Notes: generated from the sequence alone by a model not told the origin. 64,000 nucleotides of DNA from Chitinophagales bacterium (GCA_040383345.1 JBEIDU010000005.1:1196-65195), one strand, 5' to 3'; counted from the stretch's first letter, positions 17,656 to 35,499 are shown. A program made the numbers and translations.

Positions 17656-18280
17656 GACTAAATTTTATGTAGTATGGCAAGGTAGAAATCCCGGAATATA
17701 CAGGTCTTGGATAGAATGTAAAAGCCAAGTGGATGGATTTGAAGGCGCCAAATACAAGTCCTTTGAATCACAAGAAGAGGCGATAGAAGCCTACCGAAGC
17801 GATTTTAAAACGTTTATATATAAAAAGAAGGAAACTGAAAAAAATCCTATTTTCACTTACAATCAACAAGGAAAAATTATTGAAAATGCTATATGTGTAG
17901 ATGCATCCTGTCTGGGCAATCCTGGAAAAATGGAATATAGAGGCGTGGACTATCAAACTCGTACCGAAATTTTCCGAAAAGGTATTTTTGAAGATGCTAC
18001 TGTCAATATTGGCGAGTTTTTAGCTATTGTTCATGGCCTCAGTTATCTCAAACAACACAATTTGAACAAAATAATCTATACCGATAGCAATACCGCTATA
18101 GCGTGGGTAAAGAAGAAAAAAGCTGCTACCAAACTCGAGTTAACCGAAAAGAATAAAATGGCTTTTGAATGGGTAGAGAAGGCGGAAAATTGGCTTAGAC
18201 AAAATGATATAACTACGCCTATAGTGAAATGGGAAACCGATAAATGGGGCGAAATACCTGCAGATTTTGGAAGAAAATAA
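17642..18280 (+). CDS. rnhA: ribonuclease HI with N-terminal hybrid-binding (RNase H1 N-terminal / caulimovirus VI-like) domain
   Basis: N-terminus is FYVVWQGRNPGIYRSWIECKSQVDGFEGAKYKSFESQEEA. The C-terminal RNase H fold shows VDASC..GEFLAIVHGL..IYTDSNTAIAW. Start set at the ATG at 17642. Confidence 0.8.
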   Translation: MSKNRTKFYVVWQGRNPGIYRSWIECKSQVDGFEGAKYKSFESQEEAIEAYRSDFKTFIYKKKETEKNPIFTYNQQGKIIENAICVDASCLGNPGKMEYRGVDYQTRTEIFRKGIFEDATVNIGEFLAIVHGLSYLKQHNLNKIIYTDSNTAIAWVKKKKAATKLELTEKNKMAFEWVEKAENWLRQNDITTPIVKWETDKWGEIPADFGRK

Positions 18281-18286
18281 TAAATA

Positions 18287-18925
18287 TTAATATTGTTTTT
18301 TGCCTTCTTTGTCTTCTTCCTCGCGAATTTTATTTTTGATAATATCGCCTAATACTTTTATAGCTACACTGTTAAAACCTCCAAGCGGTAGGATGATATC
18401 TGCAAATTTTTTGGAAGGTTCTATATATTGTTCATGCATTGGTTTTACAGTTTCGAGGTATCGTTTCAAGACCTCATTGACATCGCGTCCTCGCTCTATG
18501 ATGTCACGCTGAATTACACGAATAAGACGTTCGTCCGCAGGGGCATCTACATATACGCAAATGTCCATTTTTTCCCTTAATTTTTTATCGGTTAAGATTA
18601 ATATGCCTTCAACAATAATGGCTTTTTTGGGATCGGTATGAATGGTGTCCTCGCTGCGGCTGCATGTGAGGTAAGAATAGATGGGCTGTTCTATAGCTTT
18701 TTGATTCTTCAAATCCTCGATATGGCTTGCCAATAGACTAAATTCGATTGCATCGGGATGATCAAAATTTGTTTTTTTCTTTTCTTCTTCGCTTAAATGT
18801 CCATTATCTTTGTAGTAGTTATCTTGGGAAAGAAGCACGACATCTTTTTTTGGAAAAAGATTCATGATTTTTTTTACTACAGTTGTTTTTCCAGAGCCTG
18901 TGCCGCCCGCAATACCAATAACCAT
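18287..18925 (-). CDS. udk: uridine kinase
   Basis: P-loop IGIAGGTGSGKTT, NFDHPDA, and ~210 aa. Confidence 0.85.
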   Translation of the reverse strand: MVIGIAGGTGSGKTTVVKKIMNLFPKKDVVLLSQDNYYKDNGHLSEEEKKKTNFDHPDAIEFSLLASHIEDLKNQKAIEQPIYSYLTCSRSEDTIHTDPKKAIIVEGILILTDKKLREKMDICVYVDAPADERLIRVIQRDIIERGRDVNEVLKRYLETVKPMHEQYIEPSKKFADIILPLGGFNSVAIKVLGDIIKNKIREEEDKEGKKQY

Positions 18926-18963
18926 TTAATTATAATATACTTTATGTGTTAGAAGAAAGAAAA

Positions 18964-19605
18964 CTATTTAACGATTTTTCCTCCTTTGAGTTCTTCCGTC
19001 AATTTTTTGAAATCTTCCATTCTGTTTTCAAATAATAATTGTGCTTGCATTGGCCATGTTTCTGGAGAATGCATGGCAAATCGAGGTCCACCTTCGTTCA
19101 AAAATTGCTGAATAATATCAATCTTTGTGTTAGCCAATTCATTATATGAATTGATATTCTTTGAATTTAATAATTTTTCAATCCCAGGCCCTATTCCTTC
19201 AATTATTTTTAAATCATTTTTAGTGTTTGAAACGGGTGTTTTTGCTACAGTTTTTTTAGCAGTAGTTTTTGGGGGTTCTACTTTTGCTTTTGCTTTCGGA
19301 GTTTCTGCTTTTAGAACCGTTTCTTTTTTTGTTGTTTTTTTCTCAGATACGTTTTCATTATCTGAAGAAGTAGTAGCTTCTTTTTCAGCTTGAATAAATT
19401 TTTCTTCAATCGAACTTTTGCTAGAAGATTCATTTTTTACATCATTGTAAACAAATTCCTTCTTTGTTCTATGGCTCATGAAATATCCCAAAAGAAACCC
19501 CAATAAGGAAGATACAAATAGCATAATTATAATTTCAATAGAGGCATTAGTTATATCGTATTGCTCTAATATGTTGTTTTGAAAAATGGTTAATGTGAAT
19601 ATCAT
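18964..19605 (-). CDS. membrane-anchored protein with low-complexity K/T/E-rich linker and C-terminal helix-hairpin-helix-like domain
   Basis: One N-terminal TM helix (IIIMLFVSSLLGFLLGYF), then a KKTTKKETVLKAETPKAKAKVEPPKTTAKK linker, then LKIIEGIGPGIEKLL (HhH-like). Confidence 0.5.
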   Translation of the reverse strand: MIFTLTIFQNNILEQYDITNASIEIIIMLFVSSLLGFLLGYFMSHRTKKEFVYNDVKNESSSKSSIEEKFIQAEKEATTSSDNENVSEKKTTKKETVLKAETPKAKAKVEPPKTTAKKTVAKTPVSNTKNDLKIIEGIGPGIEKLLNSKNINSYNELANTKIDIIQQFLNEGGPRFAMHSPETWPMQAQLLFENRMEDFKKLTEELKGGKIVK

Positions 19606-19624
19606 AATCTTTGATTTACTATAA

Positions 19625-20449
19625 TTATTGAATGATTTTAATTGTTATGCGACAGTTTTTTGCAATGTTTTCGGGCGTATTATTTACATATTTTGGTTTT
19701 GAAGATCCATATCCTTCTATGACAATTTTGTCCTCAGAAAGACCCATGCTTATCAAATGATTTTTAACCATTTTGCATCGATCTTCAGAAAGTGTTTTAT
19801 TTGTAGCTTCAGAATTTAAATTATTCACAAAATGCCCTTCCAATCTAATTTTTTGAGAGCTAAATCCAATCTTAGCTATATATTCTTTTAATATATTGGA
19901 ATACGTTTCTTCTTTTAAACTAATTTTTGAATGTAATGGGAAAAATAATTCTGCCATATTATCCTGACTTACTACTTTTATTTCCGATAAATTTAAAAAA
20001 CGAGTGGTGTCCGCGATTTGAATTTTCAATGCTTCAAAAGGAGATTTAAATAAAGAATCTTTAGTGATTTCAATAGAAGCTAACTGAATCTTGCTTGTAT
20101 CTATACAAGAAGCAAGAAGATTTTTGAATTGTTGTGCTCTTGCCAATCCAATGTTTGCAAAAGATGAGCTATTTATTTCGTCGGAAAAATAAGAGCCCAC
20201 GATTTCTATATATTGACCATTATATTTACTACAAAGATCACTTCTATATATTTCAAAATCATTTAATATTGCACTGTCCGAATTGATATTGAACGAAATA
20301 GGAAAAGAAGGCGCTTGAAATTGAGAAGAATCTACCATACGTGTATATTCCGAATCGCAAAAGTTTTTGATGCCACAAGTATAGTGTTTCCAGCATACTA
20401 TCCACCAAATCAACATTACGATGAGTACTAAAATGCTTTTTAAATTCAT
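19625..20449 (-). CDS. OmpA-family (OmpA_C-like) protein
   Basis: N-terminal TM or signal. The C-terminus LSEDRCKMVKNHLISMGLSEDKIVIEGYGSSKP is the OmpA-like peptidoglycan-binding signature. Confidence 0.7.
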   Translation of the reverse strand: MNLKSILVLIVMLIWWIVCWKHYTCGIKNFCDSEYTRMVDSSQFQAPSFPISFNINSDSAILNDFEIYRSDLCSKYNGQYIEIVGSYFSDEINSSSFANIGLARAQQFKNLLASCIDTSKIQLASIEITKDSLFKSPFEALKIQIADTTRFLNLSEIKVVSQDNMAELFFPLHSKISLKEETYSNILKEYIAKIGFSSQKIRLEGHFVNNLNSEATNKTLSEDRCKMVKNHLISMGLSEDKIVIEGYGSSKPKYVNNTPENIAKNCRITIKIIQ

Positions 20450-20485
20450 CTAAAGCAACGTTTAAAATTGATTAAAATTAATTTG

Positions 20486-20493
20486 CAAATTTA
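20486..20493 (-). promoter_or_regulatory. -7 box TAAATTTG on the minus strand
   Basis: The plus strand reads CAAATTTA inside the palindrome AATTTGCAAATT. It is 36 nt upstream of the start at 20449. Confidence 0.4.
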
Positions 20494-20750
20494 TAAATAA
20501 AATCTAATATGTATTGTTTTAAATTATAATTGTTTATAATTCAATAGATTGTGTATCTAATCGTAATAAAAATGTATTTTTATAATGTGTACAAAATCAA
20601 TTACTTGTGATAATCAATTTTAATGAAATTTATTAAATTTTTAATGATGATAAGCTCTATTTTTATCATATCAAAAAAAAGTTATACTTTAGCATTTTAA
20701 ATTGAAAAATGATAATAAAAAATCAGATATAAACCTGAGGAAGTAAGTCG

Positions 20751-21839
20751 ATGATGAATAAACAAACCATTTTTAATGTTGGACCCGCTATGATTTTTGA
20801 GCAAGTGCCCAATCTTACCGCTCAGTTTTTTGCTGAAAATATGGGAAGTGTATCGCATCGTAGTCCTGAGTTCAGGCAATTGCATTTGGAAGTTGTCTGT
20901 CATTTAAAAAAAATAATGAATATACCTGAATCGTATGGTGTTTTCTTTGCAGGTTCTGCATCAGAATTATGGGAACGAATTCTATTAAATGGTGTCAAAA
21001 ATAAAAGTGCTCATATTGTCAATGGCTCTTTTTCAAGCAGATTTTATGACTACGCACAAAGTCTCAACTTAGATACGCAAAAAATTGAATTTGAAGAGGG
21101 AAGAGGATTTCACGCTTCGCAAATATTGGTAGAAGACGATGTAGAGATGATATGTATAACTCAAAATGAAACTTCCACAGGGGTTTGGATTCCAGAAAAT
21201 GAAATAGCTGATATTGCGAAAAAATACCCCGAAAAATTGATTTCGGTAGATATTGTATCTTCTGTACCAATAGTAAATTTAGATTTCAATTGTATTGATA
21301 ATGCTTTTTTTTCAGTTCAAAAAGCTTTTGGAATGCCTGCTGGATTGGGGGTTTGGATTGTATCGCCCCGTATGCTTGCCAAATCCATTGCTTTGAAAGC
21401 GGAAAAGGGTATTGGGGCGCATCATACGTTGCCTGTTCATTGGAAAAATTTTGAAAAAAATGAAACGCATTCTACGCCCAATGTCTATGGAATTTATTTG
21501 CTCAATCACATTTCACAATATCTCTTATCCCAAAATATAAAATCTCTTTGTAATGAAATAAAAACACGAGCAAATTGGATTTATAACCAATTGAATTCAA
21601 TGGTTCATTTCAAACCTTTTGTATTTGATGCGCAGTTTCAGTCGCCTACTATTATTGTCCTTCAGGCAGATAGTGCCGATAGGGTCGCACAAGCTATAAA
21701 ACTTTTGGCATCTCATAATTTATCGGTAAGTAGTGGTTATGGGCAGTATAAAACGATGCAAATTCGTATCGGTAATTTTCCTGCATTGAAGCAAAAAGAT
21801 TTTGAAAACTTTTTTTCAATTTTAAAACAAATAGATTAA
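20751..21839 (+). CDS. class V aminotransferase, phosphoserine aminotransferase-like
   Basis: FNVGPAM...SHRSPEFRQL N-terminus is SerC-like. 362 aa. Confidence 0.55.
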   Translation: MMNKQTIFNVGPAMIFEQVPNLTAQFFAENMGSVSHRSPEFRQLHLEVVCHLKKIMNIPESYGVFFAGSASELWERILLNGVKNKSAHIVNGSFSSRFYDYAQSLNLDTQKIEFEEGRGFHASQILVEDDVEMICITQNETSTGVWIPENEIADIAKKYPEKLISVDIVSSVPIVNLDFNCIDNAFFSVQKAFGMPAGLGVWIVSPRMLAKSIALKAEKGIGAHHTLPVHWKNFEKNETHSTPNVYGIYLLNHISQYLLSQNIKSLCNEIKTRANWIYNQLNSMVHFKPFVFDAQFQSPTIIVLQADSADRVAQAIKLLASHNLSVSSGYGQYKTMQIRIGNFPALKQKDFENFFSILKQID

Positions 21840-21845
21840 CGAAAT

Positions 21846-22706
21846 ATGATAGCAGCATCCGAATTGATTTTGAACCCTGATAATAGTGTGTATCACTTAA
21901 ATTTATTACCACAAGATATTGCAGATACCATTATTTTTGTGGGTGATCCGGATAGAGTTTGTGATATTTCATGTTTTTTTGATACGATAGAAGTCAAAAA
22001 ACAAAAAAGAGAATTTTTGACTCATACGGGCCTATTCAAAGGCAAGCGAATTAGCGTAATTTCAACAGGAATTGGTACCGATAATATTGATATTGTTTTA
22101 AATGAGTTGGATGCGTTAGTTAATGTCGATTTGGAAAAAAGAGAAATTAAAAAGGAACTCAAATCGCTTAAAATCATTCGAATAGGCACTTCTGGAGCAT
22201 TGCATGCCGATATCCCATTGGATAGTATTGTATTGAGCCAATATGCAATAGGTATGGAAGGTTTGATGCATTTTTATCAGACGAATCTCTCTCCAATAGA
22301 AATGCAGTTGAAACAAGATTTTGAAGCTTTTTTGAAGCAAGAATCTATTGCAGTCATTGCCCCTTATACGGCATCGGCTTCGCAAGATTTATTGGATTTA
22401 TTCCCCGAATTTATAAAAGGAATTACACTCACCAATACGGGATTTTATGCACCACAAGGACGTCAAGTGCGTGCCATTCCCAAAGTAGAAAATTATAATG
22501 ATAAGATGGCTAAATTTCAATCTTCATTGGGAAAAATTACTAATTTTGAAATGGAAACATCTGGCATTTATGGCTTATCTAATTTGTTGGGGCATAAAGC
22601 CTTATCAGTCAATGTAATAATTGCCAATCGTGCGTTAGGCAAATTCTCCGAAAATCCTCAACAAGCCGTAAAGCAAGCTATTGAGACAATATTGGGGAGG
22701 TTGTAG
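21846..22706 (+). CDS. nucleoside phosphorylase (PNP_UDP_1 family)
   Basis: FVGDPDRV, IRIGTSGAL and NFEMETSG are family motifs. Confidence 0.75.
   Translation: MIAASELILNPDNSVYHLNLLPQDIADTIIFVGDPDRVCDISCFFDTIEVKKQKREFLTHTGLFKGKRISVISTGIGTDNIDIVLNELDALVNVDLEKREIKKELKSLKIIRIGTSGALHADIPLDSIVLSQYAIGMEGLMHFYQTNLSPIEMQLKQDFEAFLKQESIAVIAPYTASASQDLLDLFPEFIKGITLTNTGFYAPQGRQVRAIPKVENYNDKMAKFQSSLGKITNFEMETSGIYGLSNLLGHKALSVNVIIANRALGKFSENPQQAVKQAIETILGRL
22651..22705 (+). repeat. 55-bp direct repeat, copy 1 (last 17 codons of the phosphorylase gene)
   Basis: aaaatcctcaacaagccgtaaagcaagctattgagacaatattggggaggttgta is identical, base for base, to 29683-29737. Confidence 0.95.
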
Positions 22707-22718
22707 TGGAAATATAAA

Positions 22719-23651
22719 TTACCAACGACCATATGCATAGCCTCGTTCAATTTTCTCGCCGATATTTATCTTAATAGTAACTTCATGGGTACTTCCCATT
22801 TGATCGGTGGGTGTTCTACTAGAAAGATCAAAATTATAACATAATTTGATTCTATTTCTTAATAATGAAAACTGATTTTCATTGAATTCATATTGTGCTC
22901 CGAATAGGAAGGCACCACTACTTCTATATCCACCAATAAAGGAAATGAATCCACTATATTCCCACTGGGAATAAATATCAAAATTATCTGGTGCATTTGC
23001 ATTATAGCGATATTGAAAAGCAGGTTTTAATATCCAATTTTCATCAAATATAATATTAAAGTCTAATCCACAATATAGCTTATTCACTGTCTTATATGAT
23101 CTAGTATTATTAGTCATATCGTATACTCCAGGAATAAGATCCGGAACAGATGCGCCTAATGAGAATAAATCATTTTGATAATATACACCTAAACCCAAAA
23201 CAGGTTTATTGTAATATGAGCTTTCCGTTTGGAAGTTGGGATCTCCTTTATAGTATCCATCTAATGCTCTATTATTAATAACGCCAAAATCCATACCAGC
23301 TCTCACTCCTAATTGTAAAAAAGCTTCTTCTTGAATATTGAACCTATATGCATAATTTCCATATAAATTAAAATTACTCATAGGACCAATTTTATCAAGA
23401 TTGAAATTCATTCCAAGGCTTGAATTCGTCTCTCCCATAGGACTGGATAAAGAAAGTAAATAATTTTTTGGATTATCTTGAATGCCTCCCCATTGATTTC
23501 TGTATGCACCTACTACTTCCAGATTGTCTGATATACCAACAGCGGCAGGGTTAAACATCATTTTTTGATCATGGTAGTTTGAAATAAGTATGCCTTGTTG
23601 GGCATAAATATTACTGCCAAAAATTAATAAGAAATATAATATAGCTCTCAT
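22719..23651 (-). CDS. PorP/SprF-family type IX secretion system membrane protein
   Basis: Signal peptide followed by AQQGILISNYHDQKMMFNPAAVG (family N-terminal signature). ~310 aa beta-barrel-like. It starts 3 nt after the upstream type-B cargo gene. Confidence 0.8.
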   Translation of the reverse strand: MRAILYFLLIFGSNIYAQQGILISNYHDQKMMFNPAAVGISDNLEVVGAYRNQWGGIQDNPKNYLLSLSSPMGETNSSLGMNFNLDKIGPMSNFNLYGNYAYRFNIQEEAFLQLGVRAGMDFGVINNRALDGYYKGDPNFQTESSYYNKPVLGLGVYYQNDLFSLGASVPDLIPGVYDMTNNTRSYKTVNKLYCGLDFNIIFDENWILKPAFQYRYNANAPDNFDIYSQWEYSGFISFIGGYRSSGAFLFGAQYEFNENQFSLLRNRIKLCYNFDLSSRTPTDQMGSTHEVTIKINIGEKIERGYAYGRW

Positions 23652-23654
23652 GAT

Positions 23655-26600
23655 TTATTTTTTAATATAGATATACCCTGTTTTTTCATTTTTTTGACCA
23701 TAAATCGTGAAACTAAAAACATAATAATAGACACCATCAGGTAAGGTATTGTTTGTATAGCCATTGGTCAAATATTCTCCATACCAATCATTTTGATAAT
23801 TTTCTTTTTCAAATACTATTTCTCCCCATCGGTTAGCAATTTGAATTTTATTATTTTTAGCTAAATGAATATTTTCTATCGTAAAAGCATCCATGATTTG
23901 ATCGTTATTTGGACTCATAGAATTGTTTACATAGATCGAATCCAAAAGCACTTTCAACTCTAACGTAGCTTTTATAGCTGTAGCCTCACTTTCGCAATTA
24001 TTTTCCCGTTGAGTTACATAGTATACTTTTTCATTTTGTAATGTGGTAGAACTAGGGATATTTTTTTGCAATTGGGAATCTTCATACCACTTTAAACTAT
24101 TTCCAGTAACAATAAGATCGTCTAATGTATTGTCATTTGAATACGTTTGAGGAGATGTAGCTATCGGTTTAGGTGGAATAGGATAGGATATTATATTTAT
24201 AGAGGTACTGCATGATTTATTTCTATAGGTATAGTCTACTGTATAACTCCTAATCTGTTGCGCTATTATTTTTATTGTTTTTGTTGTTGCGGCATTAAAC
24301 CATAATAATTTATTGAACAAGGATTGGAAGGTTAGCAAAATCGTATCACCTTCACAATAGTTGGGTTTATCAGAAGTAATATTGCCTGAATTGATATATG
24401 CTTTAACTTTTTTGATAGCACTTTCACAATTATTTAATGATTGAGTAGCATAATAGGTTACATTGTCTGAAAGTTGTGCGTTGTTATTAAGGATAATTTT
24501 CTTTGTAGAATCCTGGTACCATTTGATAAGATTTCCGGTAATAATTAAATCTTTTATTTGTGCGGACATACAAAATATCTGAGAATCTAATGCTATAGGA
24601 GCGATACTACTATTTACGAATAAGTTTAGTGTACGAATAGAGTCACACCCTTTGCTATTTGCCCCAAACAAGGTATCTACATAAATTCCTGTTGATTTCT
24701 TGCCTAGGAAGGAATCACCTTGACAAATCGTTTGATTAATGGTTGAGAATGTTCTTGGATTTACCGTAAGATTTAATGTTCGAATAGAATCACACCCTTT
24801 GCTATTAGCGCCAAATAATGTATCTACATAAATTCCTGTTGATTTCTTGCCTAGGAAGGAATCACCTTGACAAATCGTTTGATTAATTGTAGAAGTTGTT
24901 CTTGGATTTACCGTCAGATTTAGTGTTCGAATAGAGTCACAACCCTTGCTATTAGCGCCGATTAAGGTATCAATATATGTTCCACTTATTGATCTTCCCA
25001 AAAAGCTTTGTCCTTGACAGATCGTTTGATTGATTGAAGAAGTTGTTCTTGGATTTACCGTAAGATTTAGAGTTCGAATAGAATCACAACCCTTGCTATT
25101 AGCTCCTATTAATGTATCAATATATGTTCCGCTTATTGATCTTCCCAAAAAGCTTTGTCCTTGACAGATCGTTTGATTGATTGAAGAAGTTGTTCTTGGA
25201 TTTACTGTCAGATTTAGAGTTCGAATGGAATCACAACCCTTACTATTAGCGCCTATTAATGTGTCAATATATGTTCCGCTTATTGATCTTCCCAAAAAGC
25301 TTTGTCCTTGACAGATCGTTTGATTGATTGAAGAAGTTGTTTTTGGATTTACCGTAAGATTTAGTGTTCGAATCGAATCACAACCCTTGCTATTAGCGCC
25401 AGTTAATGTGTCAATATATGTTCCGCTTATTGTTCTTCCCAAAAAGCTCTGACCTTGACATATCGTTTGATTAATTGTTGAGATTGTTTTTGGATTTACT
25501 GTCACCGTCACAGTATCCGTACAAAAATGACTGCCATTGGATACACGCACCCAGTACTTAGTAGTTACAGTCGGTGTTACATTGATAGTAGGTGTAGTAT
25601 CGCCTGTGGACCAAAGGTAGGACTGAGGATAAGCTGGTGTATATAGTTGTTGAATTTCTTGGAGAGTTAAAGCTCGGTTCCATGCTAAAAAATCATCTAG
25701 CTTACCTTTAAAAAATGATGGATAACCATCTGTATAAATCAATTTCCCAAATGTTAAAGGTTTAAAATTAGAAGTATTAATTAATGTATTTGGATTGTAT
25801 ATTGAAGATGGAATAGTTAATAAAATACCATTTTTATATACTAATATATTATTTTGTATTGTTCCTCCATTAGGGAAAACAATACAATAAAAATTCCATT
25901 TATTACAAAAATTAGTATCGCTATTGTAAGCAATAAAAGAACTACTTGTAATACTAGCGATATTATCTTGAATACCACATCGAATAATTGCTGCGAATGT
26001 TTCTCCAGGCGCACCATCTCCATAGGAAAATGCATAAGAATTTGAGAGATTTTGTTCTGGTAAAGCCCAAAAAGCTATTGTTCTACTGTTGTTTCCTGTA
26101 ATGCTATTAATAACTGATGTAGAAATAAAATCATCCACTCCATCAAAATTATACGCCTTATTCGTATTCCCGAATCTATCAGTAGTTAATGTTGCTCCAT
26201 TCACCGTTCCATTATTCCCATTTCCACTAGCATCATTGGCATTACCACAGAATGGCCAGAAGCCGACGAGTCCATTTTGAAGATTTGCTGGAAGTGGAGC
26301 ACAGTAGGAAAGCGGTGTGCTACCCAATATGCTATCTGCATTTAATCTTACCGATCTTCCAAGACAAATTGTAGTATCATTATTAAGGATATTTGCCTTA
26401 ATAATACTCACAAAAACAGAATCCATTCCTGAACATCCAGCACTATTTGTAGCCGTAATTTTATACCATCCTGTACTTTTTGCAAAAAAAGACGCCGTCG
26501 TTTTTCCATTTGACCAGCTATAGGTACTCATACCTGAAGTAGCTGAAACTAAAACAGAATCTCCGCAGGCTTTGATGGTATCTTGGGAGATAAGATTTGT

Positions 26601-29540
26601 AGGAGGTTGACTTACAGTTACTGTAACCGTATCCGTACAAAAATGACTACCATTGGATACTCTTACCCAGTATTTTGTAGTTACAGTCGGTGTTACATTG
26701 ATAGTAGGTGTGGTATCGCCTGTGGACCATAGATAGGACTGAGGATATGATGATGTATATAATTGTTGAATTTCTTGTGGAGTTAAGGCTCGGTTCCATA
26801 TCCCAATATCATCGATTATTCCGTTGAAAAAATATGGGTGATTAAGATAATCATGTTTACCTATATATAAAGGATCTGTATTTGTTCCAAATGAGTTATT
26901 ATTATTTTGTGTTACAGTATTTTCTAATACTCCATTAACATAAATTTTCATTGTTAGACTGTTAATACTAGCAGTAATCAAAGTCCATTGATTTATGTTA
27001 ACAGTTGAGCTGGATTCAACAAATATGTTATTCCCAATGACGAACCTAGATTTATTATTAGAAGAGAAAACTAGTAAATCATAATGTCCTGGTCCCTGAT
27101 CCCATCCTTTATTAACAACCATTGATGCATTTGACGAATTGTATGCTGAAGTATTGACCCAGGCAGATATAGTAATTTGTGAAGTCGGATTAAGTGAATT
27201 ACTATTATTGATATTTATAAAATCATCCACTCCATCAAAATTATACGCCTTATTCGTATTCCCGAATCTATCCGTCGTTAAATTAGCGCCATTCACCGTT
27301 CCATGATTATTATTCCCGCTTACATCATTGGCATTACCACAGAAAGGCCAGTAGCCTACAAGTCCATTTTGAAGATTTGCAGGAAGTGGTGCACAGGAGG
27401 AAAGCGGTGAGCTTCCCAGTATACTATCTGCATTTAATCTTACCGATCTCCCAAGACAAATGGTAGTATCATTATTAAGGATATTCGCTTTAACAATACT
27501 CACAAAAACGGAATCCGTTCCTGAACATCCAGCATTATTTGTAGCTGTAACTTTGTACCATCCTGTGCTTTTTGCAAAGATGTTTGAAGTAGTAGCTCCT
27601 GTGTTCCAAGCATATGAACTCAAACCCGAAGTAGCCGAAACTAAAACACTATCACCACAAGCTTTGATGGTATCTTGGGAGATAAGATTTGTAGGAGGTT
27701 GACTTACTGTCACTGTAACCGTATCTGTACAAAAATGACTGCCATTGGATACACGCACCCAGTATTTTGTAGTTACGCTTGGTGTGACATTGATAGTTGG
27801 TGTGGTATCGCCAGTGGACCAGAGGTAGGACTGAGGATAAGATGATGAATATAATTGTTGAATTTCTTGAGGGGTTAAAGCGCGGTTCCAAATTCCAATG
27901 TCATCTAATTTTCCTATATAATAATTTACAAAAGAACTCCACTCTCTTCCAAATTGTATATCTCCAGAACAAATATCAATCGAAGAAGAAGGTGGAATTG
28001 AAGTAGACTTTAATATCCCATCAATGTATACATTAACTTCTGTTGAATAAGTGGCAGTAACCATATGCCAGTTGCCATTAGTTAAAATTGGATTATTTCC
28101 ACCAAAAGATGACCACCCAATTGATGGTTGACATGAACTATTGTATTTTAAACTTAGTAGGTTTGAAAAATTAAGTGCAAATGAATATTGTTCATTTGCA
28201 GCATTCATGAAATTATTTTTTTTAATTGGAACCATTAAATTACCACCAGTGGTATTTATCCAAAAATTCACTGTACCTTGAGGATTATTTAATGAAGAAT
28301 TTGAAGGAACTTGTATGAAATTATTATTAAAATTATATGCATTATTCAAATTCCCAAATCTATCCGTTGTCAAAGTAGCTCCATTTACCGTTCCATTATT
28401 CCCATTGCCACTAGCATCATTGGCATTGCCACAGAATGGCCAGTAGCCGACGAGTCCATTTTGAAGATTTGGGGGAAGTGGAGCACAGTAGGAAAGCGGT
28501 GTGCTTACCAGTATACTATCTGCACGTAATCTTACCGATCTTCCAAGACAAATAGCCGTATCATTATTTAATATATTTGCCTTAATAATACTCACAAAAA
28601 CAGAATCCATTCCTGAACATCCAGCACTATTTGTAGCCGAAACTTTGTACCATCCTGTACTTTTTGCAAAGATAGACGCCGTTGTTTTTCCATTTGACCA
28701 GCTGTAAGAAGTTAACCCTGAAGTAGCCGAAACTAAAACACTATCGCCACAAGCTTTGATGGTATCTTGGGTGATAAGACTTGAATTAAAAATCGTATTT
28801 AGTGAGCCGGAATATAGAGCTTGAACTTCACAAGTCGTTAATGCTCTATTCCATATGCCAATATCATCAATTTTACCATTAAAATTCTTAACATTAAATA
28901 AAGACCAGTTAGCTTGTCCAATTAATAAGTCAAATGAATTATTACCAATAACTCCAGTTCCAAAACTTTGTGCAACTAAAATTCCATTTATATAAATTTG
29001 TCCTTGAGTACCAGTCCAAACTTGAACAATATGATACCACGAATTTATAGTTATTGAATTATTAGAAGTGCTTAAACTATATGCTGGATTAGGAGATCCA
29101 TTCTGAAGTCTAAAGTTACTTTGATAACCAATTTCTATGTTAGAATTATATCCATTTTGTGTAGAACCTGAGCCAGCTTGTTTACTTAAAATAATACTAA
29201 TTTGACTTGAAGATAAAGATGCTGCATTAATCCAATATGAAAATGAGAATTTATTTTGAGTTTGAAAATTAAGTGAAGAATTATTTGGAATAGAAATGTA
29301 TGAAGTGGTGCCATTAAAACTATATGCTTTATTAGACATTCCAAATCTGTCAACTGTCAAAGTAGCTCCATTTACGGTCCCATTATTTCCATTTCCAGAG
29401 CTATCTATAGCATTGCCAGTAAAGGGCCACCATCCTACCAGCCCAGTTGAAGGAACGTAATTTGGAATTTGAGCTTTTATAAATATACTTATTGAAAAAA
29501 GTAATATAGAGAGTATTTTTTTCATAATTTTATTTTTCAT
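23655..29540 (-). CDS. giant repetitive adhesin-like protein: 4 LamG (concanavalin-like lectin) modules, Ig-like linkers, 6 x 49-aa repeats, T9SS type-B (gliding-motility-associated) C-terminal sorting domain
   Basis: Signal peptide. Four copies of LVG(W/Y/F)WPF.GNA.D.SGN.N.GTVNGA.LT.DRFG and DDIGIWNRALT (LamG_3-like). The C-terminus reads SPNNDQIMDAFTIENI...RWGEIVFEKENYQNDWYGEY...DGVYYYVF...GYIYIKK. Confidence 0.85.
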   Translation of the reverse strand: MKNKIMKKILSILLFSISIFIKAQIPNYVPSTGLVGWWPFTGNAIDSSGNGNNGTVNGATLTVDRFGMSNKAYSFNGTTSYISIPNNSSLNFQTQNKFSFSYWINAASLSSSQISIILSKQAGSGSTQNGYNSNIEIGYQSNFRLQNGSPNPAYSLSTSNNSITINSWYHIVQVWTGTQGQIYINGILVAQSFGTGVIGNNSFDLLIGQANWSLFNVKNFNGKIDDIGIWNRALTTCEVQALYSGSLNTIFNSSLITQDTIKACGDSVLVSATSGLTSYSWSNGKTTASIFAKSTGWYKVSATNSAGCSGMDSVFVSIIKANILNNDTAICLGRSVRLRADSILVSTPLSYCAPLPPNLQNGLVGYWPFCGNANDASGNGNNGTVNGATLTTDRFGNLNNAYNFNNNFIQVPSNSSLNNPQGTVNFWINTTGGNLMVPIKKNNFMNAANEQYSFALNFSNLLSLKYNSSCQPSIGWSSFGGNNPILTNGNWHMVTATYSTEVNVYIDGILKSTSIPPSSSIDICSGDIQFGREWSSFVNYYIGKLDDIGIWNRALTPQEIQQLYSSSYPQSYLWSTGDTTPTINVTPSVTTKYWVRVSNGSHFCTDTVTVTVSQPPTNLISQDTIKACGDSVLVSATSGLSSYAWNTGATTSNIFAKSTGWYKVTATNNAGCSGTDSVFVSIVKANILNNDTTICLGRSVRLNADSILGSSPLSSCAPLPANLQNGLVGYWPFCGNANDVSGNNNHGTVNGANLTTDRFGNTNKAYNFDGVDDFININNSNSLNPTSQITISAWVNTSAYNSSNASMVVNKGWDQGPGHYDLLVFSSNNKSRFVIGNNIFVESSSTVNINQWTLITASINSLTMKIYVNGVLENTVTQNNNNSFGTNTDPLYIGKHDYLNHPYFFNGIIDDIGIWNRALTPQEIQQLYTSSYPQSYLWSTGDTTPTINVTPTVTTKYWVRVSNGSHFCTDTVTVTVSQPPTNLISQDTIKACGDSVLVSATSGMSTYSWSNGKTTASFFAKSTGWYKITATNSAGCSGMDSVFVSIIKANILNNDTTICLGRSVRLNADSILGSTPLSYCAPLPANLQNGLVGFWPFCGNANDASGNGNNGTVNGATLTTDRFGNTNKAYNFDGVDDFISTSVINSITGNNSRTIAFWALPEQNLSNSYAFSYGDGAPGETFAAIIRCGIQDNIASITSSSFIAYNSDTNFCNKWNFYCIVFPNGGTIQNNILVYKNGILLTIPSSIYNPNTLINTSNFKPLTFGKLIYTDGYPSFFKGKLDDFLAWNRALTLQEIQQLYTPAYPQSYLWSTGDTTPTINVTPTVTTKYWVRVSNGSHFCTDTVTVTVNPKTISTINQTICQGQSFLGRTISGTYIDTLTGANSKGCDSIRTLNLTVNPKTTSSINQTICQGQSFLGRSISGTYIDTLIGANSKGCDSIRTLNLTVNPRTTSSINQTICQGQSFLGRSISGTYIDTLIGANSKGCDSIRTLNLTVNPRTTSSINQTICQGQSFLGRSISGTYIDTLIGANSKGCDSIRTLNLTVNPRTTSTINQTICQGDSFLGKKSTGIYVDTLFGANSKGCDSIRTLNLTVNPRTFSTINQTICQGDSFLGKKSTGIYVDTLFGANSKGCDSIRTLNLFVNSSIAPIALDSQIFCMSAQIKDLIITGNLIKWYQDSTKKIILNNNAQLSDNVTYYATQSLNNCESAIKKVKAYINSGNITSDKPNYCEGDTILLTFQSLFNKLLWFNAATTKTIKIIAQQIRSYTVDYTYRNKSCSTSINIISYPIPPKPIATSPQTYSNDNTLDDLIVTGNSLKWYEDSQLQKNIPSSTTLQNEKVYYVTQRENNCESEATAIKATLELKVLLDSIYVNNSMSPNNDQIMDAFTIENIHLAKNNKIQIANRWGEIVFEKENYQNDWYGEYLTNGYTNNTLPDGVYYYVFSFTIYGQKNEKTGYIYIKK
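24615..25496 (-). repeat. 6 x 147-bp in-frame tandem repeat inside the adhesin gene
   Basis: The unit encodes NP(K/R)T.S.INQTICQG.SFLG....G.Y.DTL.GANSKGCDSIRTLNL(T/F)V. Period 147 nt, read directly from the DNA. Confidence 0.95.
25497..29470 (-). repeat. ~3.6 copies of a ~1.1-kb module (periods 1092, 1092, 1116 nt) inside the adhesin gene
   Basis: The anchor gctttgatggtatcttggg occurs at 26569, 27661 and 28753. The anchor acaaaaatga occurs at 25521, 26637 and 27729. Confidence 0.9.
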
Positions 29541-29626
29541 TTTAATCTATTTCTTAAAATTACTTCTCAAAACAATTAGTTTAAGAAACAAATTTTATTT
29601 GTTAATTTTTATTAAAAAAATATTCG

Positions 29627-29634
29627 CAAATATA
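29627..29634 (-). promoter_or_regulatory. -7 box TATATTTG on the minus strand, upstream of the adhesin operon
   Basis: The plus strand reads CAAATATA. It is 86 nt upstream of the ATG at 29540. Confidence 0.35.
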
Positions 29635-29682
29635 AAATAGATAAATTAAAATAAAAAGTATAATTCAATATGTTTTATTTAA

Positions 29683-29737
29683 AAAATCCTCAACAAGCCG
29701 TAAAGCAAGCTATTGAGACAATATTGGGGAGGTTGTA
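29683..29737 (+). repeat. 55-bp direct repeat, copy 2 (orphan fragment of the phosphorylase 3' end, followed by TAA)
   Basis: Identical to 22651-22705. The next base differs (TAG stop in copy 1, TAA here), and the flanks on both sides are unrelated. Confidence 0.95.
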
Positions 29738-29792
29738 AGGGGGGCATATTTCTAATTTGTATGTTAGAGCTGTGATTACATTTAAAGTAATT

Positions 29793-30836
29793 TTAATACC
29801 AAATATAAGGACAAAAATTTGGCTCGCCTTTCGTGGGTTGGTCTTTGGATTTGATTAAATATCCTATAGAAAGTTCGAGTCCCCCATAGTTTGATGAAGC
29901 TATACTGAGAGGCGATGAATTAAAGTCGTAGCTGAGCTGAGCCGTAAATACATTTTTTTCATAGTGAAACCAAGGTATCCAAGCATCTCCAATTCTATGG
30001 CTCATTCCAAAAGTTATACTGGATTTTTCATCGTCAGATCCTTTTGCCAAATCTAATTTTGCTCCTAGTCCCATTACCCATTCATTTTTATTGTCTTGCC
30101 ATTGATAAAAGGATAATGGCATCAAGGCTATATTTTTCCATATAACAAAATCTGCACTAGCATAGAGATTAAATTTTCGTTGAAGCAATGCGTTAGAAGA
30201 TTTATTGAGGAAATTTTGGTTGGTTTGATTCAAATGCTGGATAGAAAAACCAACATTAAAAATTTGATCTTCTCTAAAAACTTGATTATAATTCAAACCT
30301 ATACCAAAATCAAAAAAACTCAATTGGGTTCGGTCAAATTGTTCATTGATGGGAATATTGGGGTCAAAATAATCGCCATTAAATTGGTTGTCAAATCGAA
30401 GCTTATTGGGATCATATGATCGTTGAGTGAAGTTTACTTGAGCTCCAAGACTCAGGGAAGCAGGGTTTCGACCACCAAATGTATAATGATATGCTGGACT
30501 AAAAGAGGCTACCGTAGTAGTATATTTTCCATCGCCAGCTCTATCAGATACTATTTGAGCCCCAAAACCTACGCGATCTCTTGAGGTTTCAAACGTTAAA
30601 TTATAATCTGCACTTAAACTGATAGAATTGTAAGGTACAGGAATGGCTTGCCATTGATTGCGAAAATTAGCCATGACCCGGATTTGTCCTTCAAAAGCAC
30701 CCGATAAGGCAGGATTGAGGAATAAAGGAGTTCTATTAAATTGAGAAAAATGTAGATCTTGGGCGATACATTTTGTATCAAAAATAAAATGAGTTATTGA
30801 TATAATTACCATAAAAAAGCGCTTTTTCAAGTCCAT
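29793..30836 (-). CDS. PorP/SprF-family type IX secretion system membrane protein (second copy)
   Basis: AQDLHFSQFNRTPLFLNPALSGAF N-terminal signature. 347 aa. It starts 6 nt after the upstream type-B cargo gene. Confidence 0.8.
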   Translation of the reverse strand: MDLKKRFFMVIISITHFIFDTKCIAQDLHFSQFNRTPLFLNPALSGAFEGQIRVMANFRNQWQAIPVPYNSISLSADYNLTFETSRDRVGFGAQIVSDRAGDGKYTTTVASFSPAYHYTFGGRNPASLSLGAQVNFTQRSYDPNKLRFDNQFNGDYFDPNIPINEQFDRTQLSFFDFGIGLNYNQVFREDQIFNVGFSIQHLNQTNQNFLNKSSNALLQRKFNLYASADFVIWKNIALMPLSFYQWQDNKNEWVMGLGAKLDLAKGSDDEKSSITFGMSHRIGDAWIPWFHYEKNVFTAQLSYDFNSSPLSIASSNYGGLELSIGYLIKSKDQPTKGEPNFCPYIWY

Positions 30837-30842
30837 GCTCCC

Positions 30843-33800
30843 TTATTTTAATAACGTAATATTACCTGATTTTTTGAGTCTTGCCCCACCAATGCATTCT
30901 ACATCAAGATAGTATGCATATACAGTAGGTTCAAGAAGGATTCCTTTGTAGGTGCCATCCCATCCTTTTTTTTGAGTATTGGACTCAAAAATTAATTGCC
31001 CCCATCGGTCATATACTGCAAAATACATTTTTAAAATATTATTGCCGCGAACATACAAGGCATCATTTTTTCCATCTCCATTGGGAGTGAAAGCATTGGG
31101 TACATATACTTCTGGGTCATCACATATTTCAAAAAAAACTTCTACTTCGGCGGTATCTGATTTTTTACATCCATTTCGATCTTTTACTATTACTTCATAT
31201 ATTGTATTTACGATTGGTTTTGCCCAAGGGCTGGGAACTATAAACTTGTCCAGTGATTCTTTGGGCGACCATACAAAATCAACTCCATTTTGTGCTTTTG
31301 CAAGCAGTCTTGAAGAATCTCCAAATTCAATTCTAACGGGTGTGGCTGAAGCCTCTAAATCTTCCAATAAGCGACTATAATCAATAGTAATAGTGTCAAA
31401 ATATTTACATTTATTGGATGGGGCTACAGAAATTTCACAACGATATAGTAATTTATCCTGCAATACATATCGAACCAACGTGTCTCGGTTTTCGATCCAG
31501 TTTGTGGGATTCCATGAATATTTATAATTCGGATTGAATGTAGCTTTGATGGAAAATGTATCTAATCTACAAATAATTGGATTAGCAGAAAGTTTTACGA
31601 AATTCGTATCTTTTTTGATAAATATACTATCGGAGACGCTACATCCCCTCGCCAGTGATCCTGTAACAACGAATAAAGTATTTGAATTGATAAATCCTCT
31701 AATCTTACTTGTTCCAATGCCACTTATTATTGGAATTGTGGGAGTCCAATTATATTGAACATTTGGTAGATAATTTGTTTCTATTTCAATACTATCAAAT
31801 TTACAACTCAATGTGTCGATAGTTTTGATAAAAAAGGTATTGGGTTCTAATACATTAATAAAAATAGAATCCATTAGTTTACAATTATTTGTATCTATCA
31901 CTTCAACAAAAATAGTAGATCCTTTTTGTAATTTGGCGAGCGCCAAAGCTCCTACTCCATTGACAATTAATGGTGCGGGAGTCCATGTATAAATGGCTCC
32001 TGGAATAGGTGTGGCATTAATAGACACCGTATCATTGATACATATTATGGAATCCGCTTTTACTTTCATTAAGTCTTTTGTAATAGATACTTTTTGAAAA
32101 AAAGTATCTATACAGCTTCCTTTTGTGACGATAGCTTTATAGACAGTGGTAGACAAAGGAGTGGCATAGGGTGCTAAGATATTGGGGTCGTCAATGGTAT
32201 TTGAAGGCGTCCAGCTTATTGATATGGAAGGGTCTGTCACATTTGGAAAGCCAATTCGAACTGAATTGCCTGGACAGACGGTTTTTTCGGGTAATGAGGT
32301 AGATGAATATCCCAAAACTAATACAGGTTTGATAATTGTATCGGTGTTATTGCAGGAATTTGGATCTTTAATGATGAGTCTTACATTATAAATTCCTGGA
32401 GAATTATAAAATGTCGTTGGGCTCTTTAATGAAGAAGTATTTCCATTATCAAAATCCCATTGGTAGGTAACATTAGTACCAACTGTATGACTCAAATCTG
32501 TGAATTGAATATTGCCAGGAGCACAATTTGTAGCCGAAGAGAAATTGGCTTTTACAGGTAATCCAAAATCAAATTTTAGAACACCAAGATTACAATTGGG
32601 GCTTTGATTGGTTCCTGAAACGACTGCCGAAGCACTCGGAAAAATAGGATAGTTGCTCTGTCCACCACATCCAGCACATACAGCATGATAAATTATGCCA
32701 TTTTTATCAAAACGACTCGTCCCACCATCTACATGTTCATCAGATAATGCGGTTGTGCCTCCAAAAAAAGAACCATAAAACAATTGACTTAAATCGCCCT
32801 CTAAGATCATCATATAAAATCCATTTCCTAGTGTAGCACTTTGATAGGCATTGGCTGTTATTGGAAGCCCGGCAACAGATAATTGGTATGTGTTAAAACC
32901 ACTAAGATTGCTTCCCCATCCCGTAATAAAAATTTTATCACAATAATCAACTAAAAAGGCTGTAGGTGATATGTCTGGAAATCGATCATTGTCCCCAAAC
33001 ATTGTGGAGCGAAGCCGCGAAGTGTATGTAGCATTGAAAATAGATACAAATTGACCGCTGTTTGATTGTCCAAATGTTGCATTTGAAGAATAAAAATTTC
33101 CAGTACCAATATCGGACTGACCAAAAACATGAATTTCATCTTTATTGTTGAGTTCTACAAAATAGATTTGATCATATTCAGAAGTGCCATAATATCCGGA
33201 AAAACGCAATAATGATAAATTATTACTTAAAGAAGAAATGATGCCATCTACACCTCCACTATTGGCAGTAGCATATACGCCAGGGGTATTTGGGTAGTTA
33301 GAAGAATTAGAGCCTCCTGCTACTACAATGTTTTTGTTTTTATCAAAAGCCATGTCATACAAAGCGTCATCACCGGCTCCTCCTATATGACTAAATGATA
33401 AAAGATTGGATAAATTAGTATTAAATTTAGCAATAATTCCATCAAATCCACCTGCATTTGTTTTGTATAGCGAGTTTGCTACTGAAGGTAAATTTGTGGA
33501 ATTGGATGTAGTAGCAATATAAATATGATCATTAGAATCAACTAATACTTCGCCACGAAGGCAATCGCCATAGTTGACAATTAATGATGCTGCTGTACCT
33601 ACACCATCTGTTCCGGAGCCTCCAAAAAAGCTAGAGCCAATCAATGCATTTCCATTACTATTGAATTTTGTAATAACTATATCGGCACCATTTGGATATT
33701 CAATGCCTAATCCTAAAAAAAAATTAAATAAACTCATACTGAGTGCATTGCCACCATTAAATGAGTTGTCAAAAGCATTTGATGTGGTTGGGTAATTAGG

Positions 33801-34817
33801 AGAACTCGTTGTGCCAAGCAAAATCAATCTACCGTTTTGATCTACAATCAAACTATGTGGCACATCATAGCTATTACCACCAATGTATGTAGAATAAATT
33901 CTGGCGGAGCCAGTAGCATTAAATTTTGTAATAGCAATATCGGTTTGTCCTGCAAAAGTACTTTGAAAGGCTCCCAGTGTAGTGGGATATCCCGTTCCAA
34001 AAACTAATCCTGAACCATATAAGTTTCCAAAAAAATCATAGGTAGCAGTAGCGCCAAAATTATCAGCTGTAGAACCACTATAGGTGCTGAATATGATTTC
34101 AGGGTCTATTTCTAGTATTTCATTTTCTTTGAGCTCATAATTGTTTACTTCAAATGATACTTGATTCTTTTCTAGCTTAAAATTTGAAGGTATAGAAAAT
34201 TTGTTTTCTTTTGATATTATATAACTCAATGGTTTTAAATCGGTACTATAGCCAAGCGCCGTTCTTGATAATATATTACCTGCTTTGTCTTTTTCTATAG
34301 ATTCCAATCCATTGTACTCAATTTTTATATCTTTCAATCGAGCACCCTTTTTAAGAAAAAAGCTATATTTAGGACGGCCTTGAAAAGATGTTACTTTTAA
34401 ATCTATATTGGGATAAATATTGATATAAAAAATTTCACTAAAGGCTTTACAATCTCCTCGCCATTTTGAAGAGTCATTGCCAATAAAATAATTGTAATAA
34501 TTTGAAAAAATCCCACTAGACTTAATTTTGACATTTGGATTTGTATTCAAAAATGTCATATTGAACGCATGCGATTTATATATTTTGTCTATTGGATCTG
34601 GATTTCTTACGTGTGTTTTTCGAGATTCATGTATACTAAAGGTCATTTTGTCTTTTTCAAGAAACATGGCACCTCCAGTGATATCTGCTTTGTATAATAT
34701 GTTCTTATCCCATTGACCTTTGTTTTCAATAAATTCCAATCCATTAGGATTGTGAGCCAAAATTGGGACGCATATATTGCTGATTAAAAAGAGGAAAATA
34801 TATTTTGTCAATTTCAT
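30843..34817 (-). CDS. large T9SS type-B cargo: N-terminal domain, SBBP beta-propeller repeats, PKD domain, Ig-like repeats, gliding-motility-associated C-terminal domain
   Basis: SBBP-like YSTYIGGNSYDVPHSLIVD and FSHIGGAGDDALYDMAFD. PKD-like YQWDFDNGNTS...GIYNVRLIIKD. C-terminus VPNAFTPNGDGKNDALYVRG...YDRWGQLIFES...GWDGTYKG. Confidence 0.85.
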   Translation of the reverse strand: MKLTKYIFLFLISNICVPILAHNPNGLEFIENKGQWDKNILYKADITGGAMFLEKDKMTFSIHESRKTHVRNPDPIDKIYKSHAFNMTFLNTNPNVKIKSSGIFSNYYNYFIGNDSSKWRGDCKAFSEIFYINIYPNIDLKVTSFQGRPKYSFFLKKGARLKDIKIEYNGLESIEKDKAGNILSRTALGYSTDLKPLSYIISKENKFSIPSNFKLEKNQVSFEVNNYELKENEILEIDPEIIFSTYSGSTADNFGATATYDFFGNLYGSGLVFGTGYPTTLGAFQSTFAGQTDIAITKFNATGSARIYSTYIGGNSYDVPHSLIVDQNGRLILLGTTSSPNYPTTSNAFDNSFNGGNALSMSLFNFFLGLGIEYPNGADIVITKFNSNGNALIGSSFFGGSGTDGVGTAASLIVNYGDCLRGEVLVDSNDHIYIATTSNSTNLPSVANSLYKTNAGGFDGIIAKFNTNLSNLLSFSHIGGAGDDALYDMAFDKNKNIVVAGGSNSSNYPNTPGVYATANSGGVDGIISSLSNNLSLLRFSGYYGTSEYDQIYFVELNNKDEIHVFGQSDIGTGNFYSSNATFGQSNSGQFVSIFNATYTSRLRSTMFGDNDRFPDISPTAFLVDYCDKIFITGWGSNLSGFNTYQLSVAGLPITANAYQSATLGNGFYMMILEGDLSQLFYGSFFGGTTALSDEHVDGGTSRFDKNGIIYHAVCAGCGGQSNYPIFPSASAVVSGTNQSPNCNLGVLKFDFGLPVKANFSSATNCAPGNIQFTDLSHTVGTNVTYQWDFDNGNTSSLKSPTTFYNSPGIYNVRLIIKDPNSCNNTDTIIKPVLVLGYSSTSLPEKTVCPGNSVRIGFPNVTDPSISISWTPSNTIDDPNILAPYATPLSTTVYKAIVTKGSCIDTFFQKVSITKDLMKVKADSIICINDTVSINATPIPGAIYTWTPAPLIVNGVGALALAKLQKGSTIFVEVIDTNNCKLMDSIFINVLEPNTFFIKTIDTLSCKFDSIEIETNYLPNVQYNWTPTIPIISGIGTSKIRGFINSNTLFVVTGSLARGCSVSDSIFIKKDTNFVKLSANPIICRLDTFSIKATFNPNYKYSWNPTNWIENRDTLVRYVLQDKLLYRCEISVAPSNKCKYFDTITIDYSRLLEDLEASATPVRIEFGDSSRLLAKAQNGVDFVWSPKESLDKFIVPSPWAKPIVNTIYEVIVKDRNGCKKSDTAEVEVFFEICDDPEVYVPNAFTPNGDGKNDALYVRGNNILKMYFAVYDRWGQLIFESNTQKKGWDGTYKGILLEPTVYAYYLDVECIGGARLKKSGNITLLK

Positions 34818-35498: not shown

Positions 35499-35499
35499 G

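Follow-up and report, generated by a model that had tools for sequence, protein, structure and literature searches.

Islands and prophages that lie in the 3′ ends of tRNA or protein genes carry an integrase beside one of their attachment (att) sites, usually together with an excisionase and further element genes. In staphylococci, the pseudo-SCC and SCC-like cassettes (SCC, staphylococcal cassette chromosome) at the 3′ end of rlmH (orfX) have core repeats of about 15 nt, which are the sites of the Ccr serine recombinases. Most knowledge of Campbell-type integration and of homology-facilitated illegitimate recombination comes from constructs made in the laboratory and from transformation experiments in naturally transformable bacteria, and we know of no natural 55-nt anchor flanking an adhesin module that has been shown to work Campbell-style. 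Modules of the SprB/SprF type have, to our knowledge, been described as fixed chromosomal operons and never as repeat-flanked units that can be inserted or deleted precisely. Such cargo-PorP pairs are functionally coupled, and cargoes whose C-terminal domain (CTD) is of type B need a cognate PorP-like protein (PMC9143113). In the streptococcal systems of ICEs (integrative and conjugative elements) and IMEs (integrative and mobilizable elements), the cis-mobilizable elements (CIMEs) are segments bounded by attL and attR repeats that include the 3′ end of the target gene, and they have no integration or transfer genes of their own (PMC5704250). Here we analyze a 64,000-nt stretch of a Chitinophagales bacterium assembly (GCA_040383345.1, JBEIDU010000005.1:1196-65195; below, the window), in which the end of a nucleoside phosphorylase gene stands on both sides of a 7.0-kb insert (below, the cassette) carrying the gene of a large T9SS (type IX secretion system) adhesin, adhesin1, and that of its PorP/SprF-family partner, PorP1. 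Both the occupied and the empty form of this site were found in lake bacteria of the same species.

The gene-end repeat and the genes it encloses

The last 55 nt of the phosphorylase gene up to the second base of its stop codon (22651-22705) recur with 100% identity at 29683-29737, at an offset of 7032 nt (direct reading and repeat finding, family D8). With up to three mismatches allowed, no copies beyond these two were found in the 64-kb window, and 0 of 100 dinucleotide-preserving shuffles gave a match. The base 5′ of the repeat is G at the first copy and A at the second, and the base on its 3′ side differs too, so that the stop codon reads TAG in the real gene and TAA after the orphan copy; outside the 55-mer the flanks are unrelated on either side. 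The first-pass annotation of this DNA had described the perfect repeat of the gene's 3′ end, the orphan copy with a stop codon at the same position and the unrelated sequence on both sides, and all three descriptions proved correct, as did its statement that the repeat pair encloses exactly one adhesin and PorP/SprF unit (Pfam). The features of the locus, with positions counted from the first base of the window, are as follows.

21846-22706, plus strand: nucleoside/uridine phosphorylase, the target gene, 286 aa, intact, stop codon TAG (Pfam PNP_UDP_1, E = 1.6e-23)
22651-22705, plus strand: direct repeat copy 1, the end of the phosphorylase coding sequence through the second base of the stop codon (direct reading, repeat finding)
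22706-22718, no strand: left junction, the G that completes the new TAG and a 12-nt spacer to the PorP1 stop codon; missing in empty-site alleles
22719-23651, minus strand: PorP1, outer-membrane partner of the PorP/SprF family, 310 aa (Pfam PF11751, E = 7.9e-47)
23655-29540, minus strand: adhesin1, T9SS cargo of 1961 aa with four Laminin_G_3 domains and a C-terminal type-B CHU_C domain (Pfam); internally repetitive and mosaic
29541-29682, minus strand: upstream region of adhesin1, 142 nt, AT-rich, part of the insert; the same region is present in contig L100; the sequence upstream of adhesin2 is unrelated
29683-29737, plus strand: direct repeat copy 2, the orphan gene end, followed by TAA (direct reading, repeat finding); with two substitutions in L100
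29738-29792, no strand: trailer native to the phosphorylase gene, made of the A of TAA and the GGGGGG... sequence and reaching to the PorP2 stop codon; what follows the single gene end in the empty-site contig L094 is colinear with it
29793-34817, minus strand: PorP2 (347 aa) and adhesin2 (1324 aa; DUF7948/PKD/CHU_C) (Pfam; synteny in L083-L086, L081, L002 and L094)

The insert (22706-29737) amounts to 6,977 nt of new DNA plus the 55-nt duplicate, and a duplication of this length far exceeds the usual target-site duplications. It has no terminal inverted repeats (inverted matches between its ends do not exceed chance-level 8-mers), and the predicted DNA fold of the 55-mer does not differ from that of shuffled sequences (z = -0.7). 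The orthologues of the phosphorylase in related assemblies share 86-97% of their amino acids with it, and the sources name its close homologues uridine or nucleoside phosphorylase; an exact look-up of the window's own phosphorylase sequence returned no record.

The two genes of the cassette are tightly packed. PorP1 starts 3 nt after the stop codon of adhesin1 on the same strand, and 12 nt separate the stop codon of the phosphorylase from that of PorP1. The CHU_C domain of adhesin1 (PF13585) covers residues 1871-1959 (E = 3.3e-21); because type-B cargoes depend on a cognate PorP-like protein (PMC9143113), adhesin1 and PorP1 form a predicted functional unit. Upstream of adhesin1, a motif search placed a Bacteroidota-type -7 box (TATATTTG) at 29634-29627, 87 nt 5′ of the ATG, which suggests the region 29541-29682 as a candidate promoter. 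A scan for sigma-70 promoters and terminators gave no more sites than in shuffled sequences, its models being uninformative for Bacteroidota, and no Rfam family was found in 21500-31000. Judged by its domains, the cassette is a self-contained predicted T9SS secretion module that comprises the cargo, the PorP/SprF partner and an upstream region of its own. Adhesin1 is internally repetitive, with five tandem 147-nt units (24612-25499; 73-83% identical) and three to four units of 1092 nt (26142-29448; 75-90% identical), each of the latter being one LamG-containing block; such repetition is probably the reason that public assemblies are broken within this gene.

Elsewhere in the window, three proteins (41941-43095, 46199-47791 and 47793-49385; one of them a subtilase) carry Por_Secre_tail, the type-A T9SS sorting domain, so that, together with the CHU_C cargo, the organism encodes both type-A and type-B T9SS cargo.

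Occupied and empty alleles

The closest public genomes are metagenome-assembled genomes of freshwater ‘Chitinophagales’. To contig L094 (Logan, SRR30597347) the window is 96.1% identical over 11849-22705 and 97.6% over 29682-39738, and the contig contains a single 55-mer (with three synonymous differences) that is directly followed by TAA, by the GGGGGG... trailer as at 29738-29792, and then by PorP2. Since the identity stays at 93-99% right up to both junctions, the alleles of the window and of L094 differ only by a 7,032-nt insertion or deletion. L094 is thus an empty-site relative of the kind the first-pass annotation had envisaged, in which the phosphorylase gene with one copy of the repeat runs into the sequence from 29738 onwards; the sister-species contigs L083-L085 are empty as well, so that both copies are by no means carried by all relatives. 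The occupied state was found again in independent data. Window 40838-29311 matches contig L100 (JGI 3300044640; NCBI has it too) at 99.1% identity, and on this contig lie PorP2, the trailer, an orphan 55-mer with two private substitutions (2/55 nt), the same 142-nt upstream region and the first 230 nt of adhesin1. On a separate 3,067-nt contig from another assembly, the phosphorylase is 97.2% and PorP1 99% identical to those of the window. The cassette is a precise presence/absence polymorphism in natural lake populations.

Fifty-five is also a common maximum k-mer size of de Bruijn graph assemblers, and with occupied and empty strains of one species both in existence, a contig might have threaded a cycle in a graph built from mixed strains and so produced the repeat as an artefact. 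Even then, every k+1-mer over both junctions would have to occur in the reads. The left junction is spanned by the independent contigs L003 (see below) and the 3,067-nt contig, and the right junction recurs in the JGI/NCBI assembly, in a slightly different strain in which the orphan has substitutions of its own. Because L100 was assembled independently with the same right junction, we reject an assembly artefact as very unlikely.

Two PorP-adhesin pairs stand head to tail at this locus with a copy of the gene end to the left of each, as if a block of gene end, PorP, adhesin and promoter had been duplicated in tandem long ago and one copy had then diverged. The first-pass annotation had argued against such a duplication from the divergence of the two PorP genes beside an identical 55-mer, and had noted that a second, unrelated adhesin/PorP pair follows immediately; both points withstand scrutiny. 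PorP1 and PorP2 show no significant similarity, adhesin1 and adhesin2 are 26% identical in the C-terminal domain only, and the regions upstream of the two adhesin genes are unrelated (55 of 152 aligned columns match), in contrast to the 100% identity of the 55-mer and the existence of conspecific empty sites. The divergence of both gene pairs, the unrelated upstream regions and the empty site together effectively refute an old tandem duplication, which we regard as very improbable, and a recent one is excluded.

In all more distant relatives the phosphorylase gene is followed by the PorP2-adhesin2 pair, either directly (L083-L085) or with a small ABM-family gene in between (L081, L086, L002 and L001). 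Because the empty arrangement is common to all of them, it is ancestral and the insertion derived; the direction of individual gain and loss events is inferred. The ABM-family (antibiotic biosynthesis monooxygenase-like) gene itself lies at 870-1184 in L002, 8874-9200 in L081 and 10867-11181 in L086; the window, L094 and L083 lack it, and the window has only the 55-nt trailer (29738-29792) in this place, which resembles the trailer of L002 (TAAGGGGGG).

In a sister species, an occupied contig (L003, in which the phosphorylase gene is followed by a PorP1-like gene) and the empty L083 are 99.4% identical, with 23 evenly spread mismatches in 3,855 nt, after which the match is lost abruptly, 8 nt short of the last base of the stop codon. 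The gene ends with ...TTG GAG AAG ATA TAG in L003 and with ...TTG GGG CGG TTG TAA in L083; the length of the L003 open reading frame (ORF) is exactly unchanged, and it closes with TAG like the occupied allele of the window. Between L003 and the window the flanks are 93-95% identical, compared with 72-82% in the PorP region (80% amino-acid identity of the PorP protein). The L003 cassette seems to come with a gene end of its own, and if it does travel with such a copy, the same ORF length and the TAG are what would be expected. Taken together, the alignments indicate that two sister species each hold occupied and empty alleles, with diverged versions of the cassette.

Some other differences were seen around the locus. 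The 3′ third of the phosphorylase gene (22151-22706) is only 77-88% identical to the sister species L083, compared with 93-97% elsewhere in the gene and in the two flanks. Because the conspecific empty allele L094 has the window-type end, the divergence is typical of the species and has no link to the cassette; an older recombination tract may be its cause. An en-bloc import of the 3′ part of the phosphorylase gene through the orphan together with the cassette, which the low identity between the sister species had brought up, was rejected because L094 has the same gene end and trailer and no cassette. In L082 (10862-14582), a phosphorylase with 92% amino-acid identity is followed by plus-strand genes for an RlaP nucleotidyltransferase, an AAA_35 ATPase and a 549-aa protein, with no PorP2; these genes may form a defence-type islet, the contig stopping before the right border. 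The region 3′ of the phosphorylase gene is a generally variable spot. A second small presence/absence difference concerns a PALP gene (for a pyridoxal-phosphate-dependent enzyme), which L083 has in addition at 2793-4111, with the RNase H gene on one side and the uridine kinase gene on the other, and which is absent in the window (18280-18306) and in L094. Farther downstream, at about 38780, a 1-nt deletion relative to L094 frameshifts a TPMT-type methyltransferase gene, leaving an ORF of 210 aa in the window (38743-39375, minus strand). In relatives the protein has 274-288 aa and runs on into a C-terminal domain that bears the motif GITCNGC; either the gene of the window is a true pseudogene or the deletion is a sequencing error.

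Ancestry of the cassette and its possible route of entry

Our preferred reading, to which we give an about even chance, is that a non-autonomous cassette entered by a single-crossover (Campbell-type) event at the end of the phosphorylase gene. The catalyst would have acted in trans, because the insert encodes no recombinase. In such an event, circular or looped DNA holding the cassette and a copy of the phosphorylase 3′ end would have recombined with the chromosomal gene end. The left repeat copy would then be fused to the body of the gene, with the cassette DNA beyond it supplying the new TAG stop codon, and the right copy would be the displaced original gene end with its native trailer (TAA GGGGGG...) still attached. 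The same scheme would give the L003 allele, host-type to near the gene end and then continuing into a diverged, cassette-borne end of equal length; for the right junction of that lineage it predicts an orphan with a foreign-type left and a host-type right part (...GGGGCGGTTGTAA ATAAAATGG). As catalyst, we somewhat favour RecA-dependent homologous recombination on the 55 nt of homology over an unlinked tyrosine recombinase, because there is no trace of an element backbone or integrase, both copies are exact host-type sequence and the orphan is free to drift (L100). Once in place, the cassette could be deleted precisely by recombination between the two 55-nt repeats, which would restore an intact gene and the empty site, and the occupied allele may pass from relative to relative when the genes alongside it recombine. 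The content of the cassette turns over fast by recombination with paralogous adhesin genes, those of a distant lineage included.

The content is laterally related to this lineage. An FG-GAP/LamG/CHU_C adhesin-PorP pair found there is 89.7% identical to PorP1 together with the C-terminal ~470 codons of adhesin1 (22718-25059); its PorP (94% amino-acid identity to PorP1) lies at a different locus, with the fixed order SOD - aldehyde dehydrogenase - adhesin A - PorP - DUF4230 - MenC - UbiA - adhesin B (L087, L088 and L095-L099). Adhesin A matches internal units of adhesin1 at 91-93% identity, and adhesin B matches the N-terminal part (28517-29535) at 92.8%, making adhesin1 overall a mosaic of 89-93% nucleotide matches to two different adhesins of L095. 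By comparison, the SOD gene of the distant lineage is only 75% identical, and a phosphorylase that most likely lies on the same contig, both contigs being 65,531 nt long, 57%. The homology ends at the coding borders, and that to the PorP of L087/L095 stops exactly at 22718. At the other locus (L087/L088) no direct repeats flank the PorP1-like module. A phosphorylase pseudogene remnant beside the PorP of L095/L087, which weak blastx matches had raised, was rejected after a profile hidden Markov model gave only 1-2 bits. When the adhesin1 N-terminus was used to search for other right junctions, the best match was P0127 on L093, in another context and without the 55-mer. Within the species, the adhesin1 allele of L100 (11527-12947, against window 29310-27890) shows 100% identity over its first 230 nt but only ~70% similarity beyond. 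The slot itself is constant, and recombination among adhesin paralogues swaps what it contains; content has also been exchanged with a distantly related lineage.

Mobility genes and donor molecules were searched for. In a Pfam scan of the 64 kb, integrase, transposase, resolvase and relaxase were absent from the insert and from every ORF of at least 100 aa, in agreement with the first-pass annotation, which had seen no recombinase in the enclosed DNA. The surroundings of the insert are ordinary housekeeping genes, and no tRNA genes were found. The insert contains no decayed backbone genes, its non-coding DNA consisting of 12 nt plus 142 nt only. The exact 55-mer and a degenerate gene-end pattern were absent from the viral contigs searched, the whole cassette had no match in plasmid and phage collections, and a metagenome scan with the degenerate 43-nt gene-end pattern returned one contig only, L083. 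With two copies in the window and none in viral contigs, the 55-mer is not a dispersed repeat. At 88 related phosphorylase loci there was neither another gene-end direct repeat downstream (the method recovers the window's own repeat as a positive control) nor an integrase-bearing element at the phosphorylase 3′ end, and no contig with the promoter-55-mer-TAG-PorP1 junction expected of a circle turned up in the contig collections searched. Elsewhere in the window, at 58975-61605 (minus strand), lies the gene of an 876-aa protein made of four DUF5689 repeats (direct repeats of 612-618 nt), followed by ORFs of 761 aa and 426 aa without a Pfam match.

The first-pass annotation had likened the borders to attL and attR of a site-specific integration. 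Of this, the gene-end repeats and the empty site stand; the integrase (in the 64 kb or at the 88 loci), the circular junction and the backbone remnant that would speak for it did not appear. The cassette may be trans-mobilised or homology-captured, as it had suggested, or it may stem from a one-off illegitimate insertion.

If the 55-mers were true attL and attR sites of a tyrosine recombinase encoded in trans, by another part of the genome or by a helper element, this would make the cassette a non-autonomous, CIME-like or pseudo-SCC-like one that leaves and enters the phosphorylase 3′ end by excision and integration. The duplicated 3′ end of the target gene with its regenerated reading frame and the precise empty site in L094 agree with this, as do the diverged cassettes (80% amino-acid identity in PorP) at the same gene end in two sister species, both with a cassette-borne TAG and with the protein length kept in L003; elements with att flanks and no recombinase are, moreover, a described class (PMC5704250). 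The search results given above point the other way, with no integrase in the 64 kb, no integrase-bearing element at the site in the 88 loci and no attP-like copy in viral contigs, plasmids or phages. The insert is pure cargo, whereas backbone remnants should have survived in a CIME that arose from a decaying ICE or IME; the orphan of L100 is already drifting (2/55 nt changed in a strain 99.1% identical overall), and the 55-mer has no significant secondary structure. On balance we regard a trans-encoded recombinase at this site as unlikely. The wider proposition, that the adhesin-PorP pairs of these freshwater Bacteroidota are non-autonomous mobile cassettes with a mimic of the phosphorylase end, which a chromosomal recombinase inserts and excises in trans in an integron-like or CIME-like swapping of adhesins between strains and species, seems to us quite doubtful, and would be of high interest if true.

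A different history would be a single illegitimate insertion, in which a foreign or ectopic PorP-adhesin fragment was joined by microhomology-driven template switching or end joining with duplication of 55 nt of the target, and in which the allele later spread or was lost solely by the usual homologous recombination, either within the flanks or from one repeat to the other. It is supported by the exactly host-type sequence of both repeat copies, by an A-run that permits a microhomology of up to 4 nt at the right junction (TTTAA|AAAATCC vs G|AAAATCC), by insert boundaries that hug the two genes and by the lack of mobility genes. Also in its favour are the variable region 3′ of the phosphorylase gene (with an ABM gene in some relatives and the RlaP/AAA_35 cargo in L082) and the clearly recombinogenic, mosaic adhesin genes. 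The L003 allele is not explained by it alone, having its junction at -8, a cassette side that resembles a diverged phosphorylase end, equal length and TAG; an illegitimate origin would therefore need a second, independent accident at the same gene end, or an introgression with a crossover a few nt from the heterology. We consider it unlikely.

Returning to the Campbell-type entry, several points weigh against it. Efficient RecA-dependent recombination has its lower limit close to a length of 55 nt. The scans brought up neither a circular or excised junction nor a donor molecule with the 55-mer, those of viral contigs, plasmids and phages being empty, and there is no evidence for the route by which a non-replicating circle would pass between cells. 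A second repeat-flanked insertion was seen at 0 of the 88 phosphorylase loci, and reuse of the site is seen in two species only. The anatomy of the window is also fitted by a one-off illegitimate insertion with target duplication, and the first base of the insert had a 1-in-2 chance of restoring a stop codon.

Comparison with described systems

T9SS-secreted surface adhesins shape gliding, attachment and probably the susceptibility to phages and grazers in Bacteroidota, and at this locus a complete predicted secretion unit behaves as a discrete block that is precisely gained and lost in natural lake populations. If the 55-nt repeat is a working recombination site, adhesin modules could be plugged in and out simply, without a mobility gene of their own, and the locus would be a tractable model of recombinase-less cassette mobility. 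If the repeat is only the scar of a single accident, the locus still illustrates cleanly, in nature, how an acquired island can become reversibly deletable through short duplications.

In its cargo the cassette is ordinary for SprB/SprF-type modules, with which it shares a large repetitive surface protein, a CHU_C (type-B) CTD and a PorP/SprF gene downstream (3 nt away here); it differs from their fixed operons in being flanked by repeats. With transposons and insertion sequences it has little in common, having no transposase, no terminal inverted repeats and a 55-nt duplication. Like the islands of tyrosine integrases, it shows a duplicated target 3′ end, a gene regenerated by element sequence and a precise empty site, but it consists of only two cargo genes and has no integrase. 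With Campbell-type integration it shares a short homologous anchor and the lack of a dedicated recombinase, and a single crossover with a circle would duplicate the anchor on both sides.

CIMEs and the cassette have in common the direct repeats of a gene 3′ end and the absence of mobility genes of their own. CIMEs are, however, decay products of ICEs or IMEs, found beside or mobilised by an element whose integrase uses the same att site, whereas here there is no decayed backbone, none of the 88 loci has a cognate integrase-bearing element, and the repeat is only a putative att site. The pseudo-SCC cassettes likewise combine recombinase-less cargo with direct repeats of the target 3′ end and a presence/absence polymorphism, and they can be mobilised in trans; the repeat of our cassette is 55 nt of exact host sequence, and no such family of recombinases and sites is known to us or was found here. 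The cassette is a repeat-flanked, recombinase-less, strain-variable islet, which is most like CIMEs and pseudo-SCC cassettes yet fails those of their defining features that could be tested. Strain-variable adhesin islets are themselves common; what is unusual in this one is the clean 55-nt duplication of a gene end without a mobility gene, together with the apparent reuse of that gene end in two species.

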